Assembly: GCA_037441365.1 (NCBI GenBank)
Contig: JBBISG010000003.1
Location: 14,624-78,623 of the forward strand
DNA length: 64,000 nucleotides
Direction: 5' to 3'
Origin: Nitrospirota bacterium
Lineage (GTDB): Bacteria > Nitrospirota > Thermodesulfovibrionia > Thermodesulfovibrionales > UBA9159
Below the pieces are notes generated by a model. That model saw only the letters and a program-made list of their open reading frames with translations. It did not search any database and was not told where the DNA came from. Positions 27,264 to 49,220 of the stretch are shown here, one piece after another. The position numbers and the translations under genes are program-made. Each line of letters opens with the position of its first letter. The stretch's first letter is position 1.

Positions 27264-27270
27264 CATTACC

Positions 27271-27307: not shown

Positions 27308-27345
27308 CTTTCATGGTCTTCGTCTGAAGGGTTGATGGTATTTCG

Positions 27346-28560
27346 ATGAGAATTATAATCATAGGCAATGGCGCTGCTGCCATAAGCGCAGTAGAGGCGA
27401 TACGGAGATGGAATAGAGATTGTGTGGTCACAATAGTGTCAAAGGAAAGAGAACCTGTGTATACCCCCTGTTTTCTCAGTAACTATCTGAGTGGAGAGAT
27501 CGATAAGGGTAGACTCTATATAAGAGACAGCCGTTTTTACGATGAAAATAAGATAGAAACGATATTTGGAAATGCTGCCCTTGAGGTCAGGGATAAATGG
27601 ATAAGGCTCTCGGATGGAAGAGAGCTGCCCTATGACAGGCTCTTGATAGCTGCTGGGTCAAGCCCTGTTGTCCCACAATTGCCTGATATGGAGGGGGAAG
27701 GTGTCTTTTCTTTCAAGACCATTGCAGATGCTGATGGTATTAGATCCGCCATTGCAGATGCAGGTGAAGCAGTGGTGATGGGAGCAGGCTTTATCGGTCT
27801 GGAGGTGGCAGAGGCCCTCAAGAAAAGGGGGGTTAAGGTTACTGTAATAGAGAGGGAAGACAGGATTCTCCCCAGAATGTTAGACAACGAGATGTCAGGG
27901 ATTGTGAGGGAACATTTAGAAAACAACGGGATAAGGATAATTACTGGGAAGGAAATAAGACTTATTCGGAGGGTCAGAGGGCGGCTTTCAGGTCTTGATA
28001 TCGGGGGAGAGACTGTCCCATGTAGATTGTTAATTTTAGCAGCAGGTGTTAGGCCGAATCTTGAGATGATCAGGGATGGATTTGTGAAGGTTCGAGATGG
28101 GATCCTGGTGGATGGCCGTATGAAAACAAATATCGACAATATCTATGCTGCAGGCGATATAGCTGAGATGGAGACCATAGGGATCAGGAAGATTAATCCC
28201 ATATGGTTCAATGCTGTAAAGGGTGGCGAAGTGGCAGGATTGAATATGATCGGCATCGAAAAGAGATACGACATCCCTCTGGTCGATATGAATGTGGTTA
28301 CTCTTTTTGGACTGTCTATCCTTTCCGCTGGTATTCAAGAAGGTGCCAAGACAATAAAGGTTCATGACTCTAAAGGCATCAGAAAGATTTATCTGGACGA
28401 GGACGGGCTTGTAGCAGGAGTGCAGTTGATAGGTAATGTTACAAAGGGCGGTCTTTATCTGTCACTCATTAATAAACGTCTTCCTGTAAAGGATGAGATG
28501 GGGATTCTATCCTATAGATTTAATTATGGCGTTATGTTAAAGCAGCAGGCCCACAGATGA
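27346..28560 (+). CDS. FAD-dependent pyridine-nucleotide-disulfide oxidoreductase (CODH-associated)
   Basis: 404 aa; two GxGxxA/G dinucleotide folds (IIIIGNGAAA, VVMGAGFIGLE), YAAGD motif. Confidence 0.85.
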   Translation: MRIIIIGNGAAAISAVEAIRRWNRDCVVTIVSKEREPVYTPCFLSNYLSGEIDKGRLYIRDSRFYDENKIETIFGNAALEVRDKWIRLSDGRELPYDRLLIAAGSSPVVPQLPDMEGEGVFSFKTIADADGIRSAIADAGEAVVMGAGFIGLEVAEALKKRGVKVTVIEREDRILPRMLDNEMSGIVREHLENNGIRIITGKEIRLIRRVRGRLSGLDIGGETVPCRLLILAAGVRPNLEMIRDGFVKVRDGILVDGRMKTNIDNIYAAGDIAEMETIGIRKINPIWFNAVKGGEVAGLNMIGIEKRYDIPLVDMNVVTLFGLSILSAGIQEGAKTIKVHDSKGIRKIYLDEDGLVAGVQLIGNVTKGGLYLSLINKRLPVKDEMGILSYRFNYGVMLKQQAHR

Positions 28561-28632
28561 CAATATGGTAATCGGTATGTCCGTATCTGGTCCTTAAAAT
28601 AAAACTTGACCTTTGGTTTAAAAATCAATAAA

Positions 28633-28642
28633 ATATGCATAT
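28633..28642. promoter_or_regulatory. ATATGCATAT palindrome overlapping the first ArsR start (candidate operator)
   Basis: same 10-mer recurs at 29010..29019; preceded by TTGACC-17-TAAAAT. Confidence 0.4.
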
Positions 28643-28973
28643 GCGAAAGGATAAGACACTCTTTGAGTTGCAATCCGATGTCTGTAAAACCCTTGCAAGC
28701 CCGAAGAGGATCGAGATACTCGATGCCCTGAAGAGCGGAGAGAAGACTGTTAGCGAGCTCGTGGAGATACTTGGTGTGCCAAAGGCAAATGTATCGCAAC
28801 ATCTTGCAGTGATGCGGTATAAGGGTATACTTAAATCGAGAAGGGAAGGGATAAACATATATTACAGCGTTTCGAATCCAAAGGTAATAGAGGCATGCAT
28901 TCTGATGAAAGAGGTCCTTATGGAGCAAATGAGAGAGAAGGGCAAGTTGGCAGAGATGGCATCAAGGGCATAA
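28635..28973 (+). CDS. ArsR/SmtB family transcriptional regulator
   Basis: 112 aa; LASPKRIEILDAL...VSELVEILGVPKANVSQHLAVMR wHTH; start may be ATG 28641 (leaderless). Confidence 0.85.
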   Translation: MHMRKDKTLFELQSDVCKTLASPKRIEILDALKSGEKTVSELVEILGVPKANVSQHLAVMRYKGILKSRREGINIYYSVSNPKVIEACILMKEVLMEQMREKGKLAEMASRA

Positions 28974-29009
28974 TTTTTTTCTTGGCAAAATATATTCAAA
29001 TATTATTAT

Positions 29010-29019
29010 ATATGCATAT
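29010..29019. promoter_or_regulatory. ATATGCATAT palindrome in the second ArsR promoter (candidate operator)
   Basis: embedded in TATATGCATATA, 6 nt upstream of ATG 29025. Confidence 0.4.
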
Positions 29020-29024
29020 AAGAT

Positions 29025-29369
29025 ATGCGTTCTATAGGTAGGAGAATAGAGGTCCTTCGGGTTATCGCCCATCCAACGAGGATCAGGATACTCGAGGAAC
29101 TTACAAAGGGTGTAAAGTGTGTGAGCGACCTTGAGGAGTTTCTCGAGATAAGTCAGCCGAATGTCTCACAGCATCTCGGCCTTTTAAGGCAGTATGGTTT
29201 GATTGACTATTACATGGATGGCAGGCTCAGGTGCTATTTTCTCAGGGACCCGATAATCCCTGATATCATAGAGATTCTGAAGAAGGATTACATCAGGGAG
29301 CTTCCAGCCCCTGCATGCTGTCCTGTAACAAAGAAGGGTAAATACCCGGGTAGGAGGGCATCAAAGTGA
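29025..29369 (+). CDS. ArsR/SmtB family transcriptional regulator (C-terminal CC motif)
   Basis: 114 aa; AHPTRIRILEEL...VSDLEEFLEISQPNVSQHLGLLR; PAPACCPV tail. Confidence 0.85.
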   Translation: MRSIGRRIEVLRVIAHPTRIRILEELTKGVKCVSDLEEFLEISQPNVSQHLGLLRQYGLIDYYMDGRLRCYFLRDPIIPDIIEILKKDYIRELPAPACCPVTKKGKYPGRRASK

Positions 29370-29396
29370 AAACAAGGGTGTCAGTAAGGAGGTAAG

Positions 29397-29753
29397 ATGG
29401 CAAAGAGATTTACATTGTTCCTGTCCACATCGCCTTATTCTTACGAGAACACGCTGACCACCATAAGGATCGCTGAGTCTGCTTTGAACAAAGGACATGT
29501 GGTGAATCTAATTGCATCAGGCGATGGGGTGTATTGTTTTTTGAAAGGTCAAAAGGCAAAGGGGGTACCTAATGCCGAAGAGAGATTCTCTGAACTTATC
29601 CAAAAGGGTTTAAGGGTCTATCTCTGAGGAGGCTGCATGAACTTTCGCCGTGCAGCGAAGGAAGACTATATTGACGGTGCAGAGGTGGGTTCTCTCAAGG
29701 GCCTCTTCAGGACCATGGGTGAGACGGATGTGTGGCTGAATATCGGTGTGTAA
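29397..29753 (+). CDS. DsrE/TusD-like sulfur-relay subunit with selenocysteine (UGA codon 77) at the active-site Cys position
   Basis: AAGGAGGT SD; 76-aa track ORF ...KGLRVYL-TGA(29625..29627)-GGCMNFRRAAKEDYIDGAEVGSLKGLFRTMGETDVWLNIGV-TAA; total 118 aa, normal DsrE length. Confidence 0.7.
29632..29656 (+). other. candidate bacterial SECIS hairpin (GCUGCAU-11 nt-GUGCAGC)
   Basis: 7-bp stem (one G-U) starting 5 nt 3' of the UGA. Confidence 0.4.
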
Positions 29754-29765
29754 CAGGAGGGCAAG

Positions 29766-30119
29766 ATGGGCAGGATTGCGATGATTCTCAGAAGGTCGCC
29801 ATATGGTGACATCAGTGCAGCAGAGGCTGTCAGGCATGCGATGGGAGGTGCTGCCGATGACCTCAGCATTAGCCTGATATTGGTTGACAGCGGGGTTTTC
29901 CTTGCGAAGAAAGGACAGGACGATGCAGGCACAGGGTATACAAATCTTGGAACTGCGTTAAAGGACTGTATCGATATGGGTGTGGAGGTTTATGCGGATA
30001 AGGCCTCTGTAAGGGAGAGGGATCTTGAAGCCGTAGATATTATAGATGGTGTGAGAATAGTTAATGGCTCTGAAATAGCGGAGATGCTGAAAGAAGCAGA
30101 GACAACAATGATCTTTTAG
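29766..30119 (+). CDS. DsrF/TusC-like protein
   Basis: 117 aa; ILRRSPYGDISAAEAVRHAMGGAA...LILVDSGVFLAKKGQD pattern. Confidence 0.75.
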   Translation: MGRIAMILRRSPYGDISAAEAVRHAMGGAADDLSISLILVDSGVFLAKKGQDDAGTGYTNLGTALKDCIDMGVEVYADKASVRERDLEAVDIIDGVRIVNGSEIAEMLKEAETTMIF

Positions 30120-30129
30120 GGAGGGCAAT

Positions 30130-30411
30130 ATGCTTGTAATAGTGAAGAACTCGCCTGACACCTTAGATGGTAGAAGGGGTATAAAACTTGCGCGTGATAT
30201 GGCTGCGGATCTGGTTCTTATACAGAATGGTGTTTATTTTGCTCAAAAGGAAAGGCTTGAAGGTTTTTGCGGGACTGCCTATGTTCTTGGCGAGGACATC
30301 GGACTCAGGGGACTGAAGGATGAAGATATCGAGAAGGGAGTAAGGAAATTGGATTATAACGGCCTTGTTGATCTGATGGCTGAGGAAGATAAGGTAGTGG
30401 GGATGTTTTAA
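30130..30411 (+). CDS. DsrH/TusB-like protein
   Basis: 93 aa; MLVIVKNSP...DLVLIQNGVYFA pattern. Confidence 0.7.
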   Translation: MLVIVKNSPDTLDGRRGIKLARDMAADLVLIQNGVYFAQKERLEGFCGTAYVLGEDIGLRGLKDEDIEKGVRKLDYNGLVDLMAEEDKVVGMF

Positions 30412-30438
30412 CACACACTCTGTATGAGGGGGGTAGCG

Positions 30439-34826: not shown

Positions 34827-35125
34827 AAGAAGAATCCTTTTATCAGAAATGCCACAATGCCTATGAGGTTTAAGATTACAATTATATATAATCTGTCAAA
34901 GCGTTTGTTAATGTTATCAAAGCGTTCGTTGACATCAAGCATGAAGGTGTCAAAGCGTTTGTTGGTTTCGTCAATTCGCTTATTGATATTAGCAAATTCT
35001 TCTTTTATTTCTGATTTAAAATCCCTTATCTCAGCCCGTATTAAGTCCAATTCCCTGAAGATAAAAGTTAGGGGGTCTGCCTTATACAGAATATCTTCTT
35101 TCTTTTCTTCTGTTTGCGGTGCCAT
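34823..35125 (-). CDS. coiled-coil protein with C-terminal TM anchor (XhlA-like architecture), nested antisense in an operon gap
   Basis: MAPQTEEKKED...INKRIDETNKRFDTFMLDVNERFDNINKRFDRLYIIVILNLIGIVAFLIKGFFF; NKRFD repeats mirrored by TCAAAGCGTTTGTT nucleotide repeats. Confidence 0.35.
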   Translation of the reverse strand: MAPQTEEKKEDILYKADPLTFIFRELDLIRAEIRDFKSEIKEEFANINKRIDETNKRFDTFMLDVNERFDNINKRFDRLYIIVILNLIGIVAFLIKGFFF

Positions 35126-36350
35126 GTCTTTTATTATATTGATTCTAACAGCAATGTCAAGCATTACTTATGCTCAGGACATCTCTATTCACGGTTTCTT
35201 TCAGGGGAACTATTCCTTCAGCACGAGGGCAAATCCTGATGGAGGCGATTTCAAATGGGGAGATGTGAGAGCACAATTAAGGCTCGAGGCATCAAAAGAG
35301 CCCTTCAGGTTATTTCTAAAAACTGATGGATTCCTTGACCACATCAATCAAAAGGGAGACTTAGATCTGAGGGAAGGCTATATAGACTATACAGCAAAGA
35401 ATTGGGATTTGAGAGTCGGTAGACAGATCATCACGTGGGGGCTTGGTGATTTGATTTTTATAAATGATGTATTCCCAAAAGACTATGAGTCATTCTTCTC
35501 TGGAAGGCCAATGGAATACCTTAAAAAAGGTGTTGATGGTGCAAAGCTTGGTATCTATCCAGGTTTTGCATCTTTTGAACTTGTTGCTGTTCCTTTTTTC
35601 GAACCAAATAATTTCCCTGATCCAAAAAGGTTCCATATGTTTGACCCTATGCCAAATATCACAAACAGGGAGGAAAGAGAACCGACCACAAGTTTTAAAA
35701 ATACCGAGTTTGCCATGCGAATATATCGTGATGTTGCAGGCCTTGATGCATCGCTGTATTTTTATCGTGGTTTCTTCAGGCAGCCATGGATGATGCCTGA
35801 TAACCCAATGATGCCAACAAGGCTCACGCTCTTTTATCCTAAGTTGTCTGTTTATGGTGCAAGCCTCCAGGGAAGGGCACTGGATGGAGTTTTAAGCCTT
35901 GAGGCAGGATATTATGATTCAAGGCAGGACAGCGGTGGCACAGACCCTATGATTCCAAACTCCCAGACGAGGTTTTTGATTGGTTATCAGAGGCAGTTGT
36001 GGGAGGACTTTACAATCGGGCTTCAATATTATGTTGAATACATGCACGATTATTCAGAATACAGAAAGAGCCTTCCTCAAGGATTTCCAGAGGAAAAGAG
36101 ACTCTATCAGCTCATGACTGTAAGGCTCACACAACTACTTGTGCAGCAGACATTGAGATTATCTTTCTTTGCCTTTTACAGTCCTTCGGACAGGGACTAT
36201 ATGTTAAATCCAGAGGGCAGATACAGCGTGACCGACCGCATATGGGTGGCGGTTGGAGCCCATATCTTCGGTGGTGGCAAAAACTGGACACAGTTCGGGC
36301 AGTTAGACAGGAATGACAATGTTTATTTACAATTGAGATACGAATTTTAG
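35124..36350 (+). CDS. outer-membrane beta-barrel protein
   Basis: signal peptide MSFIILILTAMSSITYA-QD; alternating beta pattern; C-terminal LQLRYEF; the 89 codons upstream in the track are low-complexity and rejected. Confidence 0.6.
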   Translation: MSFIILILTAMSSITYAQDISIHGFFQGNYSFSTRANPDGGDFKWGDVRAQLRLEASKEPFRLFLKTDGFLDHINQKGDLDLREGYIDYTAKNWDLRVGRQIITWGLGDLIFINDVFPKDYESFFSGRPMEYLKKGVDGAKLGIYPGFASFELVAVPFFEPNNFPDPKRFHMFDPMPNITNREEREPTTSFKNTEFAMRIYRDVAGLDASLYFYRGFFRQPWMMPDNPMMPTRLTLFYPKLSVYGASLQGRALDGVLSLEAGYYDSRQDSGGTDPMIPNSQTRFLIGYQRQLWEDFTIGLQYYVEYMHDYSEYRKSLPQGFPEEKRLYQLMTVRLTQLLVQQTLRLSFFAFYSPSDRDYMLNPEGRYSVTDRIWVAVGAHIFGGGKNWTQFGQLDRNDNVYLQLRYEF

Positions 36351-36352
36351 CC

Positions 36353-38473
36353 CTACATGCTTACCCTCACCTTCCATGTGGTTCCGTCCTTTTTATCCTC
36401 AAGGATTATCCCCTGTTCCTCCAGCTCCTTTCTTACGGCGTCTGCCGTTGCCCAGTCCTTCCTCTGTCTCGCCTCCTGCCTCTGCTTTATCCTGTCGAGA
36501 ATATCTTCCCTTGTGAGGGGGATATTCTTTGTCTTCATGAGGGAGTCATACCACTCATCAGGACTTTTATTGAAGATATTAAGCACGTTGCCAGCCTGAT
36601 GCAGCAGTTCCTTTGTTTTTGATACGAGGTCCCCTGCCTTCCGACCTGATGGCCTGGTGTCGAGAAACCTGTTAACCTCCCTTATCAGCTCAAAGATATA
36701 CCCCAGTGCCTGGGCAGTATTGAAGTCGTCATCCATAGCCTCTTTAAACTTATCCAGAAATGTAGAGACCGCATCTTCAAGGGTCTTCCCCTGCAGAGAC
36801 GGCCATGACGAACCTCCCTCTCCCTTAAATTCTTCCATCCTTATCAGGGTAGTGTAATATCTATCAAGGGATGCCTCTGCTTCTCTGAGCAATGCGTCAG
36901 AAAATTCTATAGGGCTTCTGTAGTGGGTCGAAAGGAGGAAGAATCTCACAACCTCAGAGTCGAACTTATCGAGTATCTCCCTGATGGTAAAGAAGTTACC
37001 GAGGGACTTTGACATCTTCTCCTTATCGATGGTGATAAAGCCGTTGTGCAGCCAGTATTTAACAAAGGGCTTGCCGGTATATGCCTCTGACTGGGCCAAT
37101 TCATTTTCATGGTGAGGGAATATCAGGTCTGCGCCGCCACCGTGGATATCAAAGCTCTCGCCAAGGTGTTTTATGGACATGGCAGTGCATTCGATATGCC
37201 AGCCTGGCCTCCCAGGACCCCACGGGCTCTCCCATGATGGCTCACCTTCTTTCGATGACTTCCAGAGGGCAAAATCCATTGGATTCCTCTTTCTCTCGTC
37301 TACCTCAACTCTGGCACCTGCAAGCATCTCCTCAATATCCCTCTTTGAGAGCTTTCCGTAATCAGGGAATCTGTTCACCTCAAAATACACATCTCCATCT
37401 ACAACATATGCATATCCCTTATCTATCAACACCCTGACTATCTCTATTATCTCCTGTATATGTTCTGTCGCCTTCGGCTCAACATCAGCCCTTCCGACAC
37501 CGAGCCTGTCCATGTCTTTGTAGTACTCCTCTGTGTATTTCCTTGCAACCTCATCCCACTGGATTCCTTCCTGCCTTGCCCTGTTAATTATCTTGTCGTC
37601 GATGTCGGTGAAGTTCCTTATGTATCTCACATCAAAACCTCTGAATCTCAGGTATCTCCTTATGACATCAAAGACGACGGCGCTCCTTGCATGGCCGATG
37701 TGGCATAGGTCATAGACTGTGACTCCACATGCGTACATGCCAATCTTATTAGGGGTCAGAGGGATCAGATCCTCTTTTTTACCTGTTAGGGTATTGAAGA
37801 CCCTTACCACTCCTCCTTTCCCCTCAAGCCTCTCTATCCTTTTTTCGAGTTCTGATATATGCTTTTCCATCTCGCTGAATTTCTCCTCCACCGGGTCGGG
37901 CATCTGGACGCGTGCAAGGCTCTCCACAGGTCCTTCTTCCATCATCCTGAGGACCCTCTTCTTGATGACCTTTCCAGGGACACCAACGACAATGGAGTAT
38001 TCAGGCACAGAACTGAGCACCACCGCATTGGCACCTATCCTTGCATAATCGCCTATGGTGATTGCGCCCAGTACCTTGGCCCCGGCCCCCACCACTACAT
38101 GATTCCCCAGTGTTGGATGGCGCTTCCCCTTTTCCTTTCCTGTCCCGCCGAGGGTTACACCCTGATAGAGAAGGCAGTCCTCTCCGATCTCTGTGGTCTC
38201 TCCTATCACAACACCCATGCCGTGGTCTATGAAAAAGCCCGGCCCTATCCTTGCTGCAGGGTGTATCTCGATACCTGTTAAGAACCTTGCGATATGCGAG
38301 ATAAGGCGGGGGATTACAGGTATCCCGAGCCTCCAGAGGAAATGATTTATCCTGTGAATGAATATGGCATGAAATCCTGGATAGGCGAGGATTACCTCAA
38401 GGCCATTTCTCGCAGCAGGGTCTTTCTCAAAGACTGCCCTGTAGTCCCTCTTTATGTCGCTCCAGAAACCCAC
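36353..38473 (-). CDS. cysS: fused serine O-acetyltransferase / cysteinyl-tRNA synthetase
   Basis: single 706-aa ORF, GTG start; aa 1-220 CysE (hexapeptide repeats, [16 protein letters not shown]-type tail); aa 222-706 CysRS ([13 protein letters not shown]). Confidence 0.85.
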
Positions 38474-40015
38474 CTACCTCTTTTCGCTCTTTGAAGGCTC
38501 TCCTGCCTCCTTTTTTATACCCCCGATCTCCATCTTTATCATGAACCTATCGGCATTCATCCTCGCATCCCTGAATGTTGGAGATGCAAACTCGGCCTTT
38601 CTGAAGTATTTCGATGCCTCTAATTTCGGTATAAGCTCTGTAGCGGAGCTTGCATAGCCTTCTATCTCCACAGTCGTCTCGGTGACCCTCACCCTCGTGA
38701 GCCATGCAGTCTTTGGAAGTACAGATGTGAGTTCCTTGAGGATATTAAGGGCCATTGGTTTATTCTCTTTAAAGTTTCTTATCGTAGATATCTCACTGCT
38801 TATTGCCTCTATCTCTTTCTTTATATTCTCGACCTTCCTGACCGCATCCTTCCTCATTATTATCTGTTTATCGATCTCGCTGAGCCTTTTCTGTTCTATC
38901 TTCAGAGGTGTAACCATATAGAGGATGCCCATTGCGGCAATTGATAGCAGGAGGATCACTGTCAGGGCTATTGGCGTCTTTGGTCTCTCGTGGCGGCCTT
39001 TTTTCAGCAGGTCCAGCCTCTTTGCCCCAGGCCGCAATGATTCTAAAACACCTCCAATAGCAGCATAGGGCGTCCCCTCTCTCTGCGGCCCTGAGGCGAC
39101 TTTTATGTCTGTCTCATTCAGGAGGCCGAAAGGCCGGTTTATCCTCAGCTTCAGCATCTCCTTCAGTGCAGGGTTTTTGTCTTTAAATAACACCACGACC
39201 CTGGGTGACCCTCCATCTTTTTTGATGTCCTCAATTATAGGCCCTACATCCCTCATGATCGCATCGACCCTTGATTTATCATCCAGAGCCGATAGGCTGC
39301 CTGCGAAGGCTCCTGTTATTAAATCGCCTGAGAACACCGCCCCTTCATATCCCTGTTCATTTATTTCTACAAAGACCGAATCTGCTTGACCGTATACATA
39401 GCGGCATAGGGCGCCCATACCTGAGAGATTGATCGTTAGTCTGCTGACATTGAACCCCTTCTCTCTGAGGGCATTTATATAAGGCATTATAAGATCAGCC
39501 TTTGCAGCTACAATAAGGAGCGTAAGCCTTCCCTCCTTTTCCGCAAGGGTCCTGAAGTCATAGAGTGCTTCATCGGCGCTGAACGGAGTCAGCCTGTCCA
39601 TCTCGTATGAAACAACATCAGAGATATTTTCCTTTACCGTGACCGGGAACTCTGCAGTCCTGATGACGGCCCAAGCCTTCGGGATGCTCAGGGTTATGTC
39701 CGCCTTAACTGCCCTCAGATGGCTGATAGACAGGACAGCCGAAGATACAATGCCCTCTGGTTGCGGGTATCGGTCTTCATCGAGGGGATATGTTTTGAAC
39801 CCCTTTATCCTATACCGTGATAAGAACCGTGTACCGAAGGCCATTGTTATGCCTCCTTTTTCGATAGATACGCAGAGGTTCTTACCGGGATAGATCGCAT
39901 CATCAGCGAGGCTGAATGTAAGGAATCTCCATAGAGATTTCCATATGCCCTCAAGCCTTGTTGCTACTGAGGATGCAGATGTTATCAGCCGCCTTATACC
40001 CGCTGTAGCTGTCAC
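38474..40015 (-). CDS. PilM/PilN-like (GspL/M-like) assembly platform fusion protein
   Basis: 513 aa; actin-like N-domain, one TM (PIALTVILLLSIAAMGILYMV), coiled coil, PilN/GspM-like C-domain. Confidence 0.6.
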   Translation of the reverse strand: MTATAGIRRLITSASSVATRLEGIWKSLWRFLTFSLADDAIYPGKNLCVSIEKGGITMAFGTRFLSRYRIKGFKTYPLDEDRYPQPEGIVSSAVLSISHLRAVKADITLSIPKAWAVIRTAEFPVTVKENISDVVSYEMDRLTPFSADEALYDFRTLAEKEGRLTLLIVAAKADLIMPYINALREKGFNVSRLTINLSGMGALCRYVYGQADSVFVEINEQGYEGAVFSGDLITGAFAGSLSALDDKSRVDAIMRDVGPIIEDIKKDGGSPRVVVLFKDKNPALKEMLKLRINRPFGLLNETDIKVASGPQREGTPYAAIGGVLESLRPGAKRLDLLKKGRHERPKTPIALTVILLLSIAAMGILYMVTPLKIEQKRLSEIDKQIIMRKDAVRKVENIKKEIEAISSEISTIRNFKENKPMALNILKELTSVLPKTAWLTRVRVTETTVEIEGYASSATELIPKLEASKYFRKAEFASPTFRDARMNADRFMIKMEIGGIKKEAGEPSKSEKR

Positions 40016-40992
40016 TGTGTTATCGTTGACGGGCTCTTGTAGTAGACATACTGGTAGTTGCTGCCGATTAGAGCAACAACTGCCCTGATTGCATAACCCC
40101 TCTTACTGTTGCCCTTATAGCCCACGGCATCAATGGTGAATTTGTTGCTCTCTGCAATGTTTATAAATTTCATGCTCTCTGCAGGGATCCCAACCTCCTG
40201 CTGCGGATTTGTTATCCTCCTGTCAGTCCTGTAACTTATTACCCTGTCAACTATTTCGGGGGTCATGCCTGGAACTGCCATCAGGACCTCCTTCGGTGCA
40301 GCATTTACATTGATTATATTCCATCCAGAGGTGACTGTTATAAAATCATTGATGCCCTTTTTTTCAGCACTTCCATATAGTATCTCAGGCGTCATTCCTT
40401 TAACAAGCAAGAGCTCCTCCAGCGTATCGAAGTTGGCATTCTTTGCCCTGTACGGGTTTGGCAGAGACATATAATAATCGCTTTCCGCGCCGTGCAGCCT
40501 GCGGAGGTCATCTGCGTCCTTCCAGTCAAGGATAGAATCCACGATCGTATCTGCCACATCCTCCTTAACACCAGAGCTCATAAGGAGATTCTTGAGTATT
40601 ATACCAGAAGCATCTGTTAATGTGTTTATATCGAGCTTTCCGGCCTCATCCATGATCCTTACGGTGTAATATCCGTCACCGAGATGCCCTGTATAGGGCG
40701 TGCCATCTGCCCTCCAGACCTCTCTGCCCTCGGTTGTTATCATTTGATTTTTAAACATATTCCAGTAGAATGCCTCCATTATCCCCCTTTCTATCCCTGC
40801 CTCAGCAATGAATTTCTCCTCGACCCTTTCCTTAAAGGACAATGTGGAATGGGTCTCTGTCCTCGCAACAAATGAAAAGGACAGGGCAATGATCATGAGG
40901 ATTGTCAATACCCATAATACCATGAGCAGGGCGATGCCCTCCCTTTGGGAATTCAGGATTGAAGATTTGAGATTTAAATCTTTTGAGTTCAT
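40012..40992 (-). CDS. GspK-like minor pseudopilin
   Basis: start moved to MNSKDLNLKSSILNSQREG-IALLMVLWVL; INVNAAPKEVLMAVPGMTPEIVDRVISYR helix-hairpin-helix motif. Confidence 0.75.
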   Translation of the reverse strand: MNSKDLNLKSSILNSQREGIALLMVLWVLTILMIIALSFSFVARTETHSTLSFKERVEEKFIAEAGIERGIMEAFYWNMFKNQMITTEGREVWRADGTPYTGHLGDGYYTVRIMDEAGKLDINTLTDASGIILKNLLMSSGVKEDVADTIVDSILDWKDADDLRRLHGAESDYYMSLPNPYRAKNANFDTLEELLLVKGMTPEILYGSAEKKGINDFITVTSGWNIINVNAAPKEVLMAVPGMTPEIVDRVISYRTDRRITNPQQEVGIPAESMKFINIAESNKFTIDAVGYKGNSKRGYAIRAVVALIGSNYQYVYYKSPSTITQ

Positions 40993-40999
40993 CAGTACC

Positions 41000-41036
41000 G
41001 GGGTCCCCAAAAAGTCGAAGACTTTTTGGGGTGCCC
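41000..41036. repeat. palindromic element, full copy (loop GAAG)
   Basis: GGGGTCCCCAAAAAGTC-GAAG-ACTTTTTGGGGTGCCC between the gspJ-like stop and the gspK-like start. Confidence 0.9.
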
Positions 41037-41065
41037 TTTTCGTTCTGGACCCTGCATTACTATTA

Positions 41066-41794
41066 CTATCGCATTCCAACTGGCCTGTTGCCGGTTAAGG
41101 CTGTTTGCGCCATCAACCCCCTTGCCCTCATCGGGATGATCATAGAGAAATCCATTCTCCCCTTAACAAGATGGAGTCTTATCTTTTCTGGGATGCTTGT
41201 GGCATCTGTCCATTGCTCGATCCACCTTCCCTGTTGCTCTGTCGGGTCCCTGTAGAAATACTCAAAATAAATCCGGTCAAAGGTGTCCAGGAGTTTTGTC
41301 TCTCTATTGTCATTTGTGCCGATGTTGCTTTCGGATGCATATAAAACCTGACCGGGGCCCCCAAAAAGTCGAAGACTTTTTGGGGTGCCCTGCTTCCCAT
41401 AGTTAGCTGATTCTACCCTGTAAGTGACAATGACATAACCCCTCTGTCCGCTCCAGATAGAGTAGTTTGTTGAAAATTGCATTGAGTCCATGCCACCTTT
41501 AAAGTAATACTTCTTAACACCATCTTCATCATATGTAAGCGGGACCTCTGACTGAATCTGGGAATCTATGATATTTAGCGATGCCCTGATTCTCTCAAGG
41601 TATTCTATCTTTCTCTCTCCTGACTCTACAGAGCGGGCTCCGAGCCTCAAGGCGCCTCCTATGATCAGGATAATAACCCCGAGTATGGCAATAGAGATCA
41701 GCAGATCAAGAAGGGTAAAGCCCCCCTCATGGGAATTCAAGATTAAAAATTTAAAATTTAAGATTTTTGAGTTCTTTAATGTTTTATTTTTCAT
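41066..41794 (-). CDS. GspJ-like minor pseudopilin with a long leader and an in-frame palindromic element
   Basis: prepilin motif HEGG-FTLLDLLISIAILG; internal GTPKSLRLFGGPG encoded by the repeat at 41354..41390. Confidence 0.65.
   Translation of the reverse strand: MKNKTLKNSKILNFKFLILNSHEGGFTLLDLLISIAILGVIILIIGGALRLGARSVESGERKIEYLERIRASLNIIDSQIQSEVPLTYDEDGVKKYYFKGGMDSMQFSTNYSIWSGQRGYVIVTYRVESANYGKQGTPKSLRLFGGPGQVLYASESNIGTNDNRETKLLDTFDRIYFEYFYRDPTEQQGRWIEQWTDATSIPEKIRLHLVKGRMDFSMIIPMRARGLMAQTALTGNRPVGMR
41354..41390. repeat. palindromic element, full copy inside the gspJ-like CDS
   Basis: GGGGCCCCCAAAAAGTC-GAAG-ACTTTTTGGGGTGCCC. Confidence 0.9.
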
Positions 41795-41810
41795 TTTGAA
41801 TCCTGAATTA

Positions 41811-42194
41811 TCATATCTGTTTATTTGCCACCTTCAGCGTCCTCAGGGTCAGCGACCTCTCCTTTGTCCCCTTTGTCCAGCGGAGCGTCATGTCTATCTT
41901 CAGGAGTCTTACCTGAAGATTTTCTGTCCTCTCTTTCGATGTGTCGGAAACTGATACATCTATCCTGTAGCCGTCATCCGTTGCCTCACTCCACGACCTC
42001 TCTGTGAGTTTTTCATCATCGAGTATCTCCCTCATCCTTGCCTCTGCCTTCATGACAGCAGAGACATAATCGTCTGAGCTTGATACGGCCCTCAGATTGG
42101 CTGAAAAAAGCTGCAGGACCACTGTTATTGCGATGCCCAGTATCGCAATAGCCACAAGGACCTCGAGGAGGGTGAAACCCTCCATGTCCGTCAT
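41811..42194 (-). CDS. GspI-like minor pseudopilin
   Basis: 127 aa from MTDMEG-FTLLEVLVAIAILG; the 63 upstream codons in the track are translated word repeats. Confidence 0.7.
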   Translation of the reverse strand: MTDMEGFTLLEVLVAIAILGIAITVVLQLFSANLRAVSSSDDYVSAVMKAEARMREILDDEKLTERSWSEATDDGYRIDVSVSDTSKERTENLQVRLLKIDMTLRWTKGTKERSLTLRTLKVANKQI

Positions 42195-42382
42195 ACGTGT
42201 CCGTCTATCAGGGTGAGGAAGCCTGTTAGTTCGTAAGTTCGAAAGCACGGAAGGACGGAAGCAGTGAACTCCGTTGTCCGTAGTCCGTGTCCGTGTTCTA
42301 TAAACGGATAACGGAGAACGGACACGAATCACGAACTTTGCTTCTGCACTTCTGCTCTTCTGCTCTATGTTGTGCTTCTGCA
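42195..42382. repeat. heptamer-word spacer (TGTCCGT AGTCCGT GTCCGTG ... AACGGAT AACGGAG AACGGAC ... TGCTTCT GCACTTC TGCTCTT)
   Basis: 7-nt periodic degenerate arrays with inverted arms, read directly. Confidence 0.7.
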
Positions 42383-42904
42383 CTATTTTATTACAACCGA
42401 TCCAACTACAGGGTCTAACTGTATGCTCACTGACCTTCTGTTGTCAGACAGGACAATGGTTCCGCCCTCAATACCGCCTGTTGCATGAAACACAATGGAG
42501 TATTTACCACTATGAACCTCCCCTGAAAAGGGATCGATTATCCTGATATTTATACCTGATGGGATGTTTTTATCGCCCTGTCCCGCTATGCCGTAGGACA
42601 TTGAGTCAAGGTTTATCAAGACAACCTGTGTCTCACTATTAGTCCGGGCTATTGATTTAGCATGCCTGATGGTTGCTGACATCTCCCTAACGACTCCATT
42701 GAGCCTGCTTGACAGCAGGGTGTTGGCAAAAAATACGGTCGATAGACCGAGTATGAGTGTAATGAGAAAGATAACCATTATAAGCTCCAAAAGGGTGAAA
42801 CCCCTCCCATTAGAGCGATAGTGTGATAGAGCGATAGAGCGATAGTCAAATTTCCGTGAACAGTGATCCGTGAAACGTGAAACGGAACACGGAAAACGGA
42901 ACAC
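42383..42904 (-). CDS. GspH-like minor pseudopilin, start codon uncertain
   Basis: prepilin motif NGRG-FTLLELIMVIFLITLILG; no in-frame ATG near the motif; nearest in-frame start is GTG 42904 inside the repeat field (35-aa leader). Confidence 0.5.
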   Translation of the reverse strand: MFRFPCSVSRFTDHCSRKFDYRSIALSHYRSNGRGFTLLELIMVIFLITLILGLSTVFFANTLLSSRLNGVVREMSATIRHAKSIARTNSETQVVLINLDSMSYGIAGQGDKNIPSGINIRIIDPFSGEVHSGKYSIVFHATGGIEGGTIVLSDNRRSVSIQLDPVVGSVVIK

Positions 42905-42940
42905 GGCACCCCAAAAAGTCTTCGACTTTTTGGGGACCCC
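42905..42940. repeat. palindromic element, full copy in inverted orientation (loop TTCG)
   Basis: GGCACCCCAAAAAGTC-TTCG-ACTTTTTGGGGACCCC. Confidence 0.9.
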
Positions 42941-43120
42941 GGTCACGGAAAACGGATCAATAATTGGAATATCTCCCCTAACCCCGCTTTTCCAAAGAGG
43001 GAAAATCCCTCCCTTTAGCAAATGGAGGTCAGGTGGGATTTTATAAAAACATGTCGTTTCCTTATAAAAACTGTCGCTCTGTCGCTCTGCCGCACCATTA
43101 ATCCGCTGACCCATAACCCC

Positions 43121-44314
43121 TCAGAACGGCAGCTCTGTTATGCTGAATATGGCCATGAGCATCGAGACGACGATAAACCCGATTACAAGGCCCATCCCGA
43201 GAATCATTGCAGGTTCGAGGAGGCTGACAAACCTCTTTATGGATGTATTCAGGCTCTTTTCGTATGTAGAGGCTATCTTCATAAGCATGTCGTCAAGCTG
43301 ACCTGTCTCCTCACCGACCTTGATCATAGACAGCGCAAGTGGCGGAAAGACATTTGCATCGGACAGCGGAGCTGCTATGCCCTTGCCCTCTTTGACCCCC
43401 TTTGAAACTGTATCGATACAAGAGGCTATGGCCTGATTGTTTATGACATCCCTTGCATTGTTTAATGCCTGCAGCAGCGGCACTCCGCTTTTGAGGAGAG
43501 TGCCCAGCGTTCGGCAGAAACGTGCTGTCTCGAGTTTCCTTATAATATCGCCGAAGACCTTCAATTTAATAGAGTCCCATCTGTATCTGTTAGGAGCGGA
43601 TTTTATGTAATTCTTAAAGATGACCCAGCCACCGATTATTGCTGACAACACAACCCACCAGTAAGATTTCAGTGTATTGCTGAAGGTGAGAACAATCTGT
43701 GTTGGAAGGGGCAGTGAGGTCCCAAGCTCTGCAAATATTACGGAGAATTTTGGAAGGACATAGGTCAAAAGGACAATGATGGACAGACCACCTGTTACAA
43801 CAAGTATGGTTGGATATATCATTGCTGAGACCACATGGTCTTTTAATTCCTTTGAGGATTCGAGGAATTCGTTAAGTTTTTCCAGTACCACATCCAGAAC
43901 GCCACCCGCCTCACCTGCCCTTATCATGTTCACATAGATCCTCGGGAATATCCTCGAATGCCGCTGGAGTGCATCCGAAAAAGAGCTGCCCTCTCTGATG
44001 GATTTCATTACGGACTGGATTATCTCCTTCATCTCTCTGCCTTCAGTTATTTCAGAGAGGATGTTGAGGCTTCTGTCAAGGGGCATGCCTGCGCCTAAAA
44101 GAGCTGAGAGCTCTGATGTGAAGGTGAGGAGGTCTCCCCTTGCTGACCTCGACAGAAGCCTTCTTTTTATGCCCTCCTTCGGGGCGGCTATCATCAATGG
44201 AATGACGCCTGAATTCTTCAGCCTTTCGACAGCAGCCCTCTGGTCTGCTGCCTCGATAACCCCTTCCACAATCGCACCCTCCATAGTGGTTGCCCTGTAA
44301 GAGAAGTGAGCCAA
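43121..44314 (-). CDS. gspF: type II secretion / type IV pilus platform protein GspF/PilC
   Basis: 397 aa; duplicated T2SF domains, 3 TMs. Confidence 0.9.
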   Translation of the reverse strand: MAHFSYRATTMEGAIVEGVIEAADQRAAVERLKNSGVIPLMIAAPKEGIKRRLLSRSARGDLLTFTSELSALLGAGMPLDRSLNILSEITEGREMKEIIQSVMKSIREGSSFSDALQRHSRIFPRIYVNMIRAGEAGGVLDVVLEKLNEFLESSKELKDHVVSAMIYPTILVVTGGLSIIVLLTYVLPKFSVIFAELGTSLPLPTQIVLTFSNTLKSYWWVVLSAIIGGWVIFKNYIKSAPNRYRWDSIKLKVFGDIIRKLETARFCRTLGTLLKSGVPLLQALNNARDVINNQAIASCIDTVSKGVKEGKGIAAPLSDANVFPPLALSMIKVGEETGQLDDMLMKIASTYEKSLNTSIKRFVSLLEPAMILGMGLVIGFIVVSMLMAIFSITELPF

Positions 44315-45850
44315 CTACGCCTCCTGTGTCACCCTGAGAACCTCGCTGAGGGTCGTCATGCCCGCCCTTATCTTCTCAGCCCCATCCTCAAGCAGGGTTC
44401 TCATGCCCTGCTGCCTTGCCACTTCCCTTATCTGGTTGGAATCAGCATTTTTTAGTATAAGCCTTCTTATATCATCATCGACCACGAGGAGCTCGAATAT
44501 CCCTGTCCTGCCATAGTAACCTGTGAAGGCGCATTTCTCGCATCCCTTTCCCTTATAAAGGGCGATATCATGGTTAAGTCCGAGGATGCTGAGCTCTTCC
44601 CTGTCGGCGATTGATCGATCAACCTCTCTACAGTCAGGGCATATAACCCTTACGAGCCTCTGTGCAAGAATTCCCCTTATGGTGGATGACAGCAGGAAGT
44701 TTTCAACGCCCATGTCAAGGAGTCTTGTTATCGAGCTTGGCGCGTCATTGGTATGGAGGGTTGAAAAGACGAGGTGTCCTGTGAGGGCAGACTGAATAGC
44801 TATTTCTGCAGTCTCGAGGTCTCTGATCTCACCTATCATGATGATGTCGGGGTCCTGCCTGACAATGTGCCTCAGTGCACTGGCAAAGTTCAGGCCTATC
44901 TTTGGTTTGACCTGTATCTGGTTTACCCCTTTTAGCTGATACTCGACAGGGTCCTCAACAGTGATAATCTTTTTGTCAGGGGAGTTTATCTTATCGAGCG
45001 CTCCGTAAAGAGTTGTTGTCTTTCCGCTTCCTGTGGGTCCTGTAACGAGTATAATGCCATTAGGCTTCTTAATGAGGCTGTTAAAGGCAGAGAGGGTTTG
45101 GGGTGGAAATCCGAGCAGGTCAAGGTCTATCACTATGCCTTCCTTGCGGAGTATCCTCATCACAACGCTTTCGCCATAAAGAACGGGGATTGTTGATACC
45201 CTCAGGTCTATCTCCCTTTCATTAATTCTCAGTCTTATGCGGCCATCCTGCGGCAGCCTCCTCTCTGCGATATTCAGTTTTGCCATTATCTTTATCCTCG
45301 AGACGATTGCTGCCTGCAGTCTCTTTGGGGTGGACTCTATGTCGTGCAGCACACCATCTATCCTGAATCTCACCTTCAATTCATCCTCAAACGGTTCTAT
45401 ATGGATGTCTGAAGCCCTGCTCTCAACAGCCCTCGTTATAAGCAGGTTAACGAGCTTTATTATCGGGGCCTCTGAGGCAAGATCCTTCAGGTGCCCTATG
45501 TCTTCTTCCTCTTCCCTGAGAAACTCTATGCCGCTGTCGCCTATATCCTCGATTATCCTGTTTATATTCTGGGACTCCTGGCCGAAGAATCTGGATATGT
45601 AGTCATCTATCGCCTTGATGTCGCTTGTATAAATTGAGACATCGGCTCCGGTTGCCACCCTGAGTGCATCTATAGTCGCCCTGTCTTCAGGATCGGCCAT
45701 CACTACGACGAGTGCATTGTCTTTGAGATCCAGAGGGATTACCCTGTTTTCACGGATAAAGCGTGATGATATCCCATCGAGGACAAATGGAACCTTCGGA
45801 AGCCCGTCGGGGTTTAGATAGGGAATGTCTTTAATCCTCTGGTGGTTCAC
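44315..45850 (-). CDS. gspE: type II secretion / type IV pilus ATPase GspE
   Basis: 511 aa; Walker A GPTGSGKTTT, Asp/His boxes, tetracysteine CPDC...CEKC. Confidence 0.9.
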   Translation of the reverse strand: MNHQRIKDIPYLNPDGLPKVPFVLDGISSRFIRENRVIPLDLKDNALVVVMADPEDRATIDALRVATGADVSIYTSDIKAIDDYISRFFGQESQNINRIIEDIGDSGIEFLREEEEDIGHLKDLASEAPIIKLVNLLITRAVESRASDIHIEPFEDELKVRFRIDGVLHDIESTPKRLQAAIVSRIKIMAKLNIAERRLPQDGRIRLRINEREIDLRVSTIPVLYGESVVMRILRKEGIVIDLDLLGFPPQTLSAFNSLIKKPNGIILVTGPTGSGKTTTLYGALDKINSPDKKIITVEDPVEYQLKGVNQIQVKPKIGLNFASALRHIVRQDPDIIMIGEIRDLETAEIAIQSALTGHLVFSTLHTNDAPSSITRLLDMGVENFLLSSTIRGILAQRLVRVICPDCREVDRSIADREELSILGLNHDIALYKGKGCEKCAFTGYYGRTGIFELLVVDDDIRRLILKNADSNQIREVARQQGMRTLLEDGAEKIRAGMTTLSEVLRVTQEA

Positions 45851-45897
45851 TCTCCGATCTCCTTCGAATTAATGGATAATTATAGCACAAATATTGT

Positions 45898-47342
45898 TTA
45901 ATACGCCCCCTCCATCCTGACAACTACCTTGAGCGTCTTAAACAGTATCACTATGTCAAGCCACAGAGACCAGTTCATGACATACCATGTATCTAACTTC
46001 ATCCTGTACTCATAGCCTGTATTGCTCCTTCCACTCACCTGCCACAGACCTGTTATGCCCGGCTTTGCGCTGCAGATAACCCCGAGGTCGCTCTCGATCT
46101 CCGCCCTCTCCCTCGGCAGATAAGGCCTCGGACCTACGAGGCTCATCTCACCCTTTAGGACATTGAATACCTGCGGCAGTTCATCCAGTGATGTCCTTCT
46201 CAGAAATCTGCCGATCCTTGTGACCCTCGGGTCGTCCTTCAGCTTCCACTTTTTGTCCCATTCCTCACGGGCAGTCTCATTGCTTTCGAGGATCTCCCTG
46301 AGTCTCTCCTCCGCATCCTTATGCATCGTCCTGAACTTGTAGCACCTGAAGGTTTTCCCGTTCTTGCCGATCCTGTCGTGGGTGTAGATTGCAGGCCCTG
46401 GTGTCTCTAATCTTATCACCAACCCGATTGCTCCGATGATGGGCAGAAGCAGCGGCATCGAGATTATGCCTGCCGCAATATCGAAGAGTCTCTTTATAAG
46501 CCTGTTCAGTGCGGATTTCAGGTTATTTCTTATGTTCATCAGGAATATCTCCTCGTAGAAGAGGTGGAGGAGTTCTGTGTTTAGAAGGGCAATGCCCTTA
46601 AGGTCTGGTATTACTATGGTGTTTATGGCGTGGTTCTGGACATTTGCAGTGATAGCGGAAAGCCTTTCAGGATGGAGCGATGGCATGGCGATTATGATCG
46701 TCCTGATGCCCAGTTCCTTCACAAACCTCGGGAAGTGCCTTACACTGCCAAAAACCTTTTTGCCGCCAATGACCTCACCTTTTTTGAGTTCGTCGTCATC
46801 AAGGAATCCGATAACTTCATATCCCATATGCCTTTCCCTTTGCAGGCCGTCCATCACCAGTCTTCCTGCCCGACCCGCACCGAGGATCAGCACCCTCTCT
46901 TTCCATATCCCTGTGGTATAGAGGATCTTTTTGCCCCAGAGCCTGAAGAGGGGAAATGTAAATATCGATGCGCCCCAGAATCCCATCAGGACGATGCGGG
47001 ATACCTCGCCGTGCAGCTTCCCCAGTGTGACGATGGCCATGGCGGTTAATGCTGCGAGGGAGGTGGCCTTTATGTTGACCATGGCCTCATCCCAGAATGG
47101 CATATTGCTACTGTAGAGACCCTCATAGGATATAAAGAATATAACGATGGCAGGTATCCACCACAATGACAGAAAATATGCGTATGAGAAATCAAAGACC
47201 GGCAGGTCTGACAGCAATAACGGTATGACCTCTGCCCTTATTGCCCATGCAATGAACATGCATGTATAAAATGCGAGAAGGTCGATGGTAACAAGGCAAA
47301 AGACCTGGAGGAGCCGTCTGAGCAGGTTATTGATGGTCTCTC

Positions 47343-47346
<4 letters not shown>
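45898..47346 (-). CDS. polyprenyl-phosphate glycosyl-1-phosphate transferase (WbaP/EpsB-like)
   Basis: start at MRETINNLL (ATGA overlap with the upstream GT2 stop); C-terminal DELPQVFNVLKGEMSLVGPRP. Confidence 0.85.

Positions 47347-49220
<1,874 letters not shown>

Follow-up and report, generated by a model that had tools for sequence, protein, structure and literature searches.

Serine acetyltransferase and cysteinyl-tRNA synthetase fused in a single protein of Nitrospirota

It is rare for an aminoacyl-tRNA synthetase (aaRS) to be fused with an enzyme for the synthesis of its own amino acid. The closest characterised precedent that we found for the gene described here is the methionyl-tRNA synthetase of M. 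penetrans (MpMetRS), in which an N-terminal domain (NTD) and an aminotransferase that can make methionine are fused to the synthetase (NTD-aminotransferase-MetRS; PMC13215547). Its oligomer is organised by the metabolic domain, to which the aaRS domains are flexibly attached; the domains are functionally independent, and the protein has been reported from a single organism (PMC13215547). A second system for comparison is the gltX-cysE-cysS operon of Firmicutes, with cysE and cysS as two open reading frames (ORFs). Here we analysed a 64,000-nucleotide stretch of DNA from a Nitrospirota bacterium (contig JBBISG010000003.1, positions 14,624 to 78,623; hereafter the window, with positions counted from its first letter), in which serine O-acetyltransferase (SAT, the product of cysE) and cysteinyl-tRNA synthetase (CysRS, the product of cysS) are encoded by one ORF on the minus strand. 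We consider it likely that this gene specifies a genuine bifunctional SAT-CysRS, inherited through a clade of Nitrospirota and formed from overlapping cysE and cysS genes by a small indel.

With the Firmicutes operon the window gene shares the two enzymes, their order and a short-type CysE with an 'LPDPV + heptad helix' tail. Moreover, in the Firmicutes-type pair the Shine-Dalgarno (SD) sequence of cysS lies inside the end of cysE, as in the ancestor that we infer for the fusion. Unlike the operon, the fusion (in the window and in loci L001 and L135-L146) is one polypeptide instead of two ORFs, and the window copy has no T-box, no other Rfam element and no gltX upstream. Like MpMetRS, it carries a presumably oligomeric metabolic enzyme fused to the N-terminus of an aaRS, has a candidate internal start codon where the two domains meet and, as far as the sequence indicates, keeps both catalytic sites intact in one polypeptide. 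The two differ in several respects: the metabolic part of MpMetRS is a pyridoxal phosphate-dependent aminotransferase dimer whereas that of CysE-CysRS is a β-helix acyltransferase; MpMetRS comes from one organism whereas CysE-CysRS occurs across a large clade (233 clusters); and the metabolic domain of MpMetRS can make the cognate methionine whereas SAT yields O-acetylserine, two steps before Cys-tRNA, with CysK still needed. We found no description of a CysE-CysRS fusion in open-access papers and bioRxiv, an earlier mention in subscription journals being possible, and the fusion is apparently undescribed. It is built from two ordinary enzymes and involves no new chemistry or mechanism.

Two complete enzymes in one reading frame

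SAT converts acetyl-CoA and L-serine to O-acetylserine, the committed step of cysteine synthesis, and CysRS, in its class-I form otherwise a monomer, makes Cys-tRNA-Cys from cysteine, ATP and tRNA-Cys. A preliminary description of the window, made from its letters and a list of its ORFs, had proposed that cysE and cysS form a single 706-residue ORF without a stop between them. The ORF list, the Pfam and NCBIfam matches and the junction DNA bear this out: one stop-free frame of 706 codons plus stop runs from a GTG start, and the equivalog models for SAT (TIGR01172) and for CysRS (TIGR00435) are both passed within it. The parts of the gene are as follows, the identity values being mean pairwise identities among 16 diverse members of the fusion family:

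36353..38473 (−), whole cysE::cysS ORF (ORF list), 100% covered by full-length homologs
38471..38476 (−), start region: the TAG of the upstream PilM/PilN-like ORF (38476..38474) directly abuts the GTG (38473..38471), and an SD-like AAGAGGT ends 3 nt upstream
37958..38473 (−), SAT core, residues 1-172, four helices and a left-handed β-helix (TIGR01172, Pfam Hexapep, PDB alignments, Foldseek); identity 0.80
37901..37957 (−), variable, low-confidence segment of the CysE tail before the linker helix, residues 173-191 (predicted local distance difference test (pLDDT) <50 at residues 165-197); identity 0.47
37823..37900 (−), putative ancestral CysE C-terminal tail as linker, residues 192-217, PDP and a three-heptad amphipathic helix (AlphaFold2 (AF2) helix 194-216, heptad pattern); identity 0.52
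37805..37822 (−), Gly-rich hinge G-K-G-G-V-V, residues 218-223, over the putative relic of the cysS ribosome-binding site and ancestral start (junction DNA, alignments); identity 0.54
36353..37804 (−), complete class-I CysRS, residues 224-706 and stop (TIGR00435, E. coli CysRS alignment, Foldseek); identity 0.79 in the catalytic domain (224-533) and 0.58 in the C-terminal domains (534-706)
37691..37702 (−), HIGH signature H258-I-G-H261, in CHIGHARS (ORF list, junction DNA, E. coli alignment)
37004..37018 (−), KMSKS signature K486-S490 (ORF list, E. coli alignment)

Residues 1-220 had been described as a complete short-type SAT with β-helix hexapeptides, and the profile matches agree. TIGR01172 scores 241.7 bits against a cut-off of 210.65, with residues 7-168 covering the whole model (1-162), and Pfam Hexapep is matched in the N-terminal part of the ORF. 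SATs in the PDB align to fusion residues 4-186, the best of them to residues ∼10-172, with ∼45% identity over the core. The alignment to solved SATs begins only at their residue ∼80, which marks the fusion SAT as the short type; compared with the long-type enzymes (PDB 1SSQ, 1S80 and 1T3D) it is without the first ∼75 residues of the N-terminal helical domain. In the AF2 model, helices at residues 3-66 precede the β-helix, and a Foldseek search with this model returned 1s80, 1ssq and 6wye at root-mean-square deviations of 1.8-2.8 Å over 168-177 columns (1.8 Å over 168 for 1s80 and 1ssq). Thus, next to the same stand-alone enzymes the fusion SAT is an ordinary family member, but its C-terminus is not free. 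The SAT motifs DPAA, [ED]IHP, DHG and RHP are kept in 228-233 of the 233 fused homologs described below, and D18 (DPAA), E69 (EIHP), D83-H84 (DHG) and R118-H119 (RHP) are invariant in a 16-sequence alignment, E69 representing a conservative Asp to Glu change. By the PDB alignment we take these residues to correspond to E. coli SAT D92, D143, D157-H158 and R192-H193. The catalytic and substrate-binding residues of SAT appear to be retained.

These results bear on an alternative in which the SAT-like domain is a non-enzymatic appendage of CysRS, serving for oligomerisation or cysteine sensing. SAT is subject to feedback inhibition by cysteine, which it binds (PDB 1ssq, 'complex with cysteine'), and non-catalytic added domains are common in aaRSs (PMC13215547), both of which would suit such a role. 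It is opposed by a score above the equivalog cut-off, by the near-complete retention of the catalytic His/Asp and substrate-binding Arg-His motifs among the homologs and by a SAT core that is as conserved as the CysRS catalytic domain; that no other cysE was seen in the 64-kb window is a weak argument in the same direction. We regard a merely structural or sensory SAT domain as very unlikely.

The part downstream had been described as a full class-I CysRS, and this holds as well. TIGR00435 scores 591.6 bits (cut-off 340) over residues 224-701, corresponding to model positions 2-464 of 466, and Pfam assigns tRNA-synt_1e to residues 238-533, DALR_2 to 575-634 and CysS_C to 663-700. The alignment to E. 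coli CysRS covers residues 2-459 of its 461, anticodon-binding domain included (E=1e-153, 48% identity). HIGH and KMSKS are invariant in the 16-sequence alignment, and the motifs CGxTxYD, WHIEC and HHENE are found in 231, 233 and 224 of the 233 homologs, respectively. C249, C429, H454 and E458 align with the Zn/cysteine-site residues of the E. coli enzyme, presumably C28, C209, H234 and E238. The top Foldseek match of the CysRS half is 1u0b, a tRNA complex (TM 0.87), and compared with stand-alone E. coli-type CysRS (PDB 1LI5 and 1U0B) this half is an ordinary family member, but its N-terminus is not free. In the Foldseek search with the AF2 model each half matched its own fold and no PDB entry spanned both.

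A complete cysteine-specific Zn site in a standard CysRS equivalog also argues against a tRNA-dependent route, in which SAT would acetylate Ser-tRNA(Cys) or act on a tRNA-bound amino acid, comparable to SepRS/SepCysS. Indirect Cys-tRNA pathways do exist, some Nitrospirae have SepRS variants, and the two domains are physically juxtaposed, this juxtaposition being all that the fusion itself offers in favour of such a route. The SAT half, however, is by model score a standard enzyme of free serine, and in every other phylum sampled the two genes function as separate units. We therefore give the tRNA-dependent route next to no credence.

Both catalytic cores are equally conserved by the alignment (0.80 and 0.79), with 0.47-0.54 for the linker between them. 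In the linker, V195, F199, M202, I206, L209, I213 and L216 are the heptad residues, and in ∼229 homologs hydrophobic residues fall at positions 2, 6, 9, 13, 16, 20 and 23 after the DP, which is a clean 4-3-4-3 heptad pattern. The same PDP-heptad tail, (L)PDP[VI]x[ED] followed by heptads, occurs in stand-alone CysE of other phyla. A likeness to the Bacillus CysE tail, pointed out in the preliminary description, was well founded, as stand-alone cysE genes of Bacillaceae and of many other taxa share the 'LPDPV + heptad helix' tail. We read the linker as the ancestral CysE tail and not as new sequence.

In E. coli, H. influenzae and plant SAT, a C-terminal tail ending in Ile inserts into the active site of CysK. 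In the fusion, a free SAT C-terminal tail for the cysteine synthase complex is absent, SAT running on covalently into CysRS. Among 132 stand-alone relatives of this short SAT type, only 16 have a C-terminal Ile, so the ancestral SAT may never have had a CysK-binding Ile tail. For the same reason we dropped, as a main point, the idea that the fusion abolishes the cysteine synthase complex through loss of the C-terminal Ile.

A Nitrospirota family probably derived from adjacent genes

We asked how widely CysE-CysRS fusions are spread and whether a stop or frameshift between two separate genes had been missed, both of which the preliminary description had raised. A search of 5.8 billion clustered proteins gave 120 full-length matches at 70-100% identity and 100% coverage, and another search, for which the most divergent member served as the seed (P0121, 66% identity), gave a further, largely non-overlapping set. 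Counting as a fused homolog a protein with the SAT GGTGK motif followed in order by HIGH and KMSKS, there are at least 233 distinct fused homologs (protein clusters) of 659-800 residues and 66-100% identity. They are drawn from NCBI, JGI, ENA and Logan assemblies, and several lie on contigs of 1.2-2.4 Mb. One of them, BCB95681.1 (P0325) of Dissulfurispira thermophila, is encoded on a 2,445,501-bp contig and labelled 'hypothetical protein' at NCBI. In this named and presumably cultured species the junction reads ...RLEGKGG-S-V-KIFNT..., with Val in place of Met.

An artefact of assembly or sequencing would mean that cysE and cysS are two genes, with a stop or frameshift between them that had gone unnoticed in the contig, and relatives in other phyla do have a stop between the two genes, some of them 1 nt from the fused geometry. 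Against this, the frame is open in all 233 independent full-length homologs, which come from four data sources and many assemblers, and likewise on Mb-scale contigs and in D. thermophila; in addition, the junction residues are conserved at the protein level. The open frame in these homologs excludes a missed stop or frameshift, and the probability that we would still assign to an artefact is negligible. Chance can be set aside, given two complete, independently recognisable enzymes in one frame and an architecture shared by 233 homologs. The CysE-CysRS fusion is thus confirmed as real and not an assembly error.

Where the source names of the full-length homologs are informative, they are all Nitrospirota: Thermodesulfovibrionales, Thermodesulfovibrio sp., Dissulfurispira, Nitrospiraceae, Nitrospira sp. 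and Ca. Nitrobium versatile. Alphaproteobacteria were rejected as a second host phylum, since the identical protein is recorded as Candidatus Nitrobium versatile (Nitrospirota) and 'Alphaproteobacteria bacterium' is the label of a metagenome-assembled genome (MAG). The database names of the homologs are 'cysteine--tRNA ligase', 'cysteinyl-tRNA synthetase' or 'hypothetical protein', and the SAT half is never mentioned. Because the databases name only CysRS or a hypothetical protein, pathway reconstructions of Nitrospirota may wrongly score cysE as missing.

We also ran an index-free HMMER search over 1.84 billion representatives at 50% identity. Its best 150 hits contained one fusion, P0121 (1122 bits), below which followed stand-alone CysRS of ∼450-520 residues at ≤580 bits, the nearest named ones from Flexistipes and a deltaproteobacterial MAG. 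A second SAT-CysRS architecture was not found among these best 150 hits. Since an independent fusion at 35-50% identity should score within them, the fusion family looks like one clade with a single origin. Six candidates for independent CysE-CysRS fusions (P0189, P0199, P0214, P0263, P0262 and P0139) were rejected, as their N-termini are of other or unassigned kinds without Hexapep. Among them, P0189 (698 aa) is a CysRS with a 225-residue N-terminal region and P0263 (779 aa) one with an N-terminal region of ∼280 residues, both regions without a Pfam match, and P0214 (1253 aa) is an mTERF-CysRS, presumably eukaryotic or organellar.

The preliminary description had related the fusion to the classical adjacency of cysE and cysS, and unfused relatives with adjacent, often overlapping cysE-cysS genes support this derivation. 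We scanned one genome per species with SAT-only peptide patterns and, at 80 loci among the matches listed, tested for a stop-free frame across both domains. Only L001, from Nitrospirota, was fused; the 79 others were unfused. At ∼70 of the listed loci cysE and cysS are adjacent but separate (Bacillota, Chloroflexota, Omnitrophota, Planctomycetia, Actinomycetota and Coriobacteriia), and at five loci, all of Burkholderiaceae, they are non-adjacent. In 35 of the 71 unfused loci analysed, the cysE stop lies 1-35 nt past the first base of the cysS start in another frame, with the SD of cysS inside cysE. Furthermore, we searched metagenomes with a DNA pattern of 80-N spacing (the fusion spacing is 79), which selects CysRS +1 out of frame; the 54 loci recovered with it (L081-L134) are unfused pairs with an out-of-frame overlap, whose geometry from PDP tail to CysRS is exactly 1 nt longer than that of the fusion. 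In these 54 loci, which serve as a control for the state before fusion, the cysE frame continues across the cysS start, often for 10-25 codons, and many of the tails end in ...RRAGNA or ...RRISNA/S.

From such pairs the fusion could have arisen by one small indel. In the ancestor, cysE would have been followed directly by cysS, the end of cysE overlapping the start of cysS out of frame and holding the cysS SD. A small indel would then have brought cysE into the frame of cysS upstream of cysE's own stop; because unfused pairs overlap out of frame with near-identical geometry, such an indel would suffice. The G-K-G-G of the linker would be the old cysS SD (AAGGAGG) read as codons, followed by the old start Met. 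The family may also be read as a record of overlapping, translationally coupled genes that merged, with the old ribosome-binding site and start legible as Gly-Lys-Gly-Gly-x-Met and kept or lost by lineage.

At one homolog locus (L143:10-2237 and 6096-6866; also L135:2212-2988), genes for PIN/TRAM, IspD and IspF proteins lie upstream, and in L143 a SpoU-type methylase gene overlaps the 3' end of the fusion gene; gltX is absent. We take the L143 gene order to resemble the yacL-ispD-ispF-gltX-cysE-cysS-...-rlmB neighbourhood of B. subtilis, and it could be what is left of an ancient conserved arrangement of genes.

A possible internal start site and expression of the gene

At the junction, the preliminary description had pointed to an SD-like sequence abutting an in-frame GTG, from which a free CysRS might also be made, and had doubted the spacing. 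The elements in question are:

37811..37819 (−), SD-like AAAGGAGGA (junction DNA; G220 codon bias)
37805..37810 (−), GTG (V222) and GTA (V223), V223 lying at the ancestral CysRS start-Met position and V222 aligning with Met1 of E. coli CysRS

The junction DNA places the SD-like sequence (37819..37811) and the GTG (37810..37808) exactly where they had been reported. The doubt was justified too: AAGGAGG ends 1 nt before the GTG, and the ancestral Met codon is GTA. The lineage of the window (P0001-P0003, 'VV') has this same arrangement, with GTA at the Met codon and GTG 1 nt after the SD.

In the homologs the ancestral Met position is occupied by M in 188 of 229 (82%), V in 23, I in 12 and L in 6, and the residues at −4/−3 to it are GG in 166 and GE in 16 of 229 (182 together). 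We examined the junction DNA of 14 genes (those of the window, L001 and L135-L146). The ancestral start codon is ATG in eight of them, the others having TTG (twice), GTG, CTG, ATA and, for the window gene, GTA with a GTG just before it. In most of the 14 genes, (A)AGGAGG or GGAGG ends 4 nt before the ancestral start codon, an aligned spacing within the range of SD spacings at likely starts in the window; in L137, L138 and L146 the SD-like sequence is absent. The A of GGAGG comes from the codon for G220. This codon is GGA in 9 of 12 genes, compared to 3.2 expected from their own Gly usage (Poisson-binomial P=0.0005), and GGA makes up 21-31% of the Gly codons in Gly-Gly or K/R-Gly contexts elsewhere in the same genes. 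G220 ranks first among 50 conserved Gly columns and is the sole one with a single codon at 75%; third codon positions are otherwise near saturation (0.34 identity). These data are suggestive of an internal site that is still under selection, with free CysRS still initiated internally in many lineages, and the retained GGAGG-N4-ATG probably allows some internal initiation of free CysRS in most homologs. An efficient stand-alone CysRS from the window gene is unlikely. The internal ATG has been lost there: the codons are GTG-GTA, and just 1 nt separates the SD from the GTG. Most or all of this CysRS in the window lineage is therefore probably made as the 80-kDa fusion. A −1 frameshift site at GGG-AAA-GGA was also considered and rejected, as the heptamer lies outside the slippery X-XXY-YYZ register and is not conserved.

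The true start of the homologous genes is of a different kind. It has no SD. An exact TATAAT, in many cases TGTATAAT, ends 1-14 nt, mostly 5-10 nt, ahead of the ATG at 10 of 13 loci (L135:122-137, L138:3987-4000, L139:3986-4000, L140:3986-4000, L141:3984-4000, L142:3987-4000, L144:3986-4000 and L145:3989-4000, and also L137 and L143). An exact TATAAT within 20 nt of the ATG is thus seen in 10 of 13 loci, compared to ∼0.01 expected per locus. The strict pattern TATAAT-N4-12-ATG matched the fusion gene at 8 of 12 loci; among all other ORFs of the same loci it matched just five. The homolog starts therefore have the geometry predicted for leaderless mRNAs. These features are absent from the window copy, where the GTG start abuts the upstream stop and is preceded by an SD-like GAGGT. 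A scan for σ70 promoters and terminators around the window gene gave counts at the level of shuffled sequence.

Taken at face value, the junction and the 5' end could mean that the gene has two products: the important CysRS would be a free enzyme of ∼55 kDa from the internal SD and start, and the full-length protein would mainly supply SAT. In the homologs, the full-length form would be translated from the leaderless 5' AUG and the short form by SD-dependent internal initiation. The GGAGG-N4-ATG of most homologs, the frequency of Met and the GGA bias and rank of G220 all fit this, as do the TATAAT so close to the first ATG and the missing SD there; moreover, TTG and GTG, the canonical alternative starts, account for three of the six non-ATG codons, and expression of MpMetRS required the mutation of an internal start codon located where its domains meet (PMC13215547). 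However, in the window lineage the Met codon is GTA, with just 1 nt between the SD and the adjacent GTG. The presence of ATA or CTG, or the lack of an SD-like sequence (L137, L138 and L146), in other homologs indicates that the site is dispensable, and the Met position is in any case a hydrophobic core position of CysRS. We consider the two-product alternative possible, if rather doubtful.

Possible function and genomic context

We prefer the reading of a bifunctional SAT-CysRS that formed once from overlapping genes. A number of points weigh against it or narrow its reach. The genome sample behind the 80 loci was arbitrary and held one Nitrospirota locus, so that it does not set the taxonomic boundary of the fusion, and our view of gene copies covers the 64-kb window, a second stand-alone cysS or cysE elsewhere in the genomes being possible. 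The codon-bias signal at the SD comes from 12-14 genes, two other Gly columns have 64% GGA, and SD-like strings are frequent at conserved positions in these purine-rich genes. Changes from M to V, I or L are equally expected at a buried hydrophobic position, and stand-alone CysRS with longer N-termini have I or L there. Finally, the AF2 monomer model has a mean pLDDT of 75 and is weak in the linker (32-69 at residues 165-220), and a three-helix bundle in this region would be a reasonable inference from the trimeric SAT family and the heptad pattern.

What would a bifunctional SAT-CysRS look like? SAT active sites sit between the subunits of the β-helix trimer. An active SAT half would therefore imply at least a trimer and hence three or more CysRS domains per oligomer, so that a monomeric class-I synthetase would become an oligomer. 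The heptad helices that leave the SAT trimer could bundle along its three-fold axis, while three CysRS domains, each on its flexible Gly hinge, would be free to move and to capture tRNA. The fusion would guarantee 1:1 co-expression of the SAT and CysRS activities. The intermediate enzyme, CysK, is not part of the fusion protein, and nothing in our analysis points to substrate channelling. Coupling of cysteine synthesis to tRNA-Cys charging, whether regulatory, as the preliminary description had proposed, or catalytic, is hypothetical; in the closest precedent, MpMetRS, the domains act independently.

A more elaborate form of this proposal would be a particle for cysteine homeostasis, composed of a SAT trimer, a three-helix bundle and three CysRS, in which cysteine at the SAT feedback site or the binding of tRNA-Cys by CysRS would affect the activity of the other domain. 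A single leaderless mRNA would then, in most lineages, be translated into two isoforms: 70S-type initiation at the 5' AUG would produce the full-length protein, and the relic SD-ATG would produce free CysRS. Conditions that promote or hinder leaderless translation would change the ratio of the two, and the window lineage, without leaderless promoter and internal ATG, would be a natural 'fusion-only' variant. We think it improbable that all of this applies.

The fusion is fixed across a large group of environmental importance, with nitrite oxidisers and sulfate reducers among its members. Because it is fixed across such a clade, the link between SAT and CysRS would seem to be stably advantageous, or at least harmless. 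It removes the free C-terminus of SAT and puts a physical link in place of the T-box coupling of Firmicutes. We found no T-box or other riboswitch: the interval 35500..41500 has no Rfam match at E≤1, and the 64-kb window as a whole has none that reaches the gathering score.

In the window, the fusion gene is the last ORF of a ten-ORF run on the same strand, the upstream part of which spans 38474-48191 (−). Seven ORFs of the run form a set like those of type IV pili or type II secretion systems, and two sugar/glycosyl transferases lie upstream. Members of the set are:

44315-45850 (−), PilB/GspE ATPase
43121-44314 (−), GspF
40012-41079 (−), GspK
(−), three N-methyl pseudopilins in the same set
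38474-40015 (−), PilM/PilN-like ORF of 513 aa

The genes upstream of the fusion are thus PilM/PilN-like, GspK, pseudopilin, GspF and GspE genes, and gltX is not at the locus. Placement in a pilus cluster was not seen in the 12 homolog loci examined, where the fusion gene usually stands alone and its neighbours vary. In 4 of these 12 loci a divergent gene for a HEAT_2-repeat protein of 128-142 aa lies immediately upstream of the fusion gene (L137:809-1195, L140:3558-3956, L143:3544-3942 and L144:3480-3908); it is not found beside the window copy, and in L137 the HEAT_2 gene also has a TATAAT-N-ATG start. On the other side of the window copy, the fusion gene and a convergent 497-aa ORF (34857-36350, +) end 2 nt apart, which leaves no room for intergenic terminators. 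This ORF has a weak Wzi-like match, and its true start is probably downstream of the listed one.

No Rfam family and no tRNA were found anywhere in the 64-kb window, and 16430-19377 and 28561-30423 hold no ORF of ≥150 aa. Two ORFs, 15218-16429 (+, 403 aa) and 20069-22432 (−, 787 aa), have no Pfam match at E≤1e-5. The intervals 6097-15207 (+) and 24796-28560 (+) contain a heme-copper oxidase cluster, which encodes COX3, SCO1, COX2 with a cytochrome c domain, COX1 and a UbiA-type heme O synthase, together with ORFs for a second, divergent COX1-like protein and a weakly matching cytochrome bd-like/cytochrome c protein; farther along are genes for a 4Fe-4S protein, a protein of the prismane/CO-dehydrogenase family and a pyridine nucleotide-disulfide oxidoreductase. 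As the oxidase cluster and the 4Fe-4S/prismane-type genes both lie in the window, this relative of Thermodesulfovibrionales-like MAGs carries genes for oxygen respiration together with redox genes of anaerobic type.

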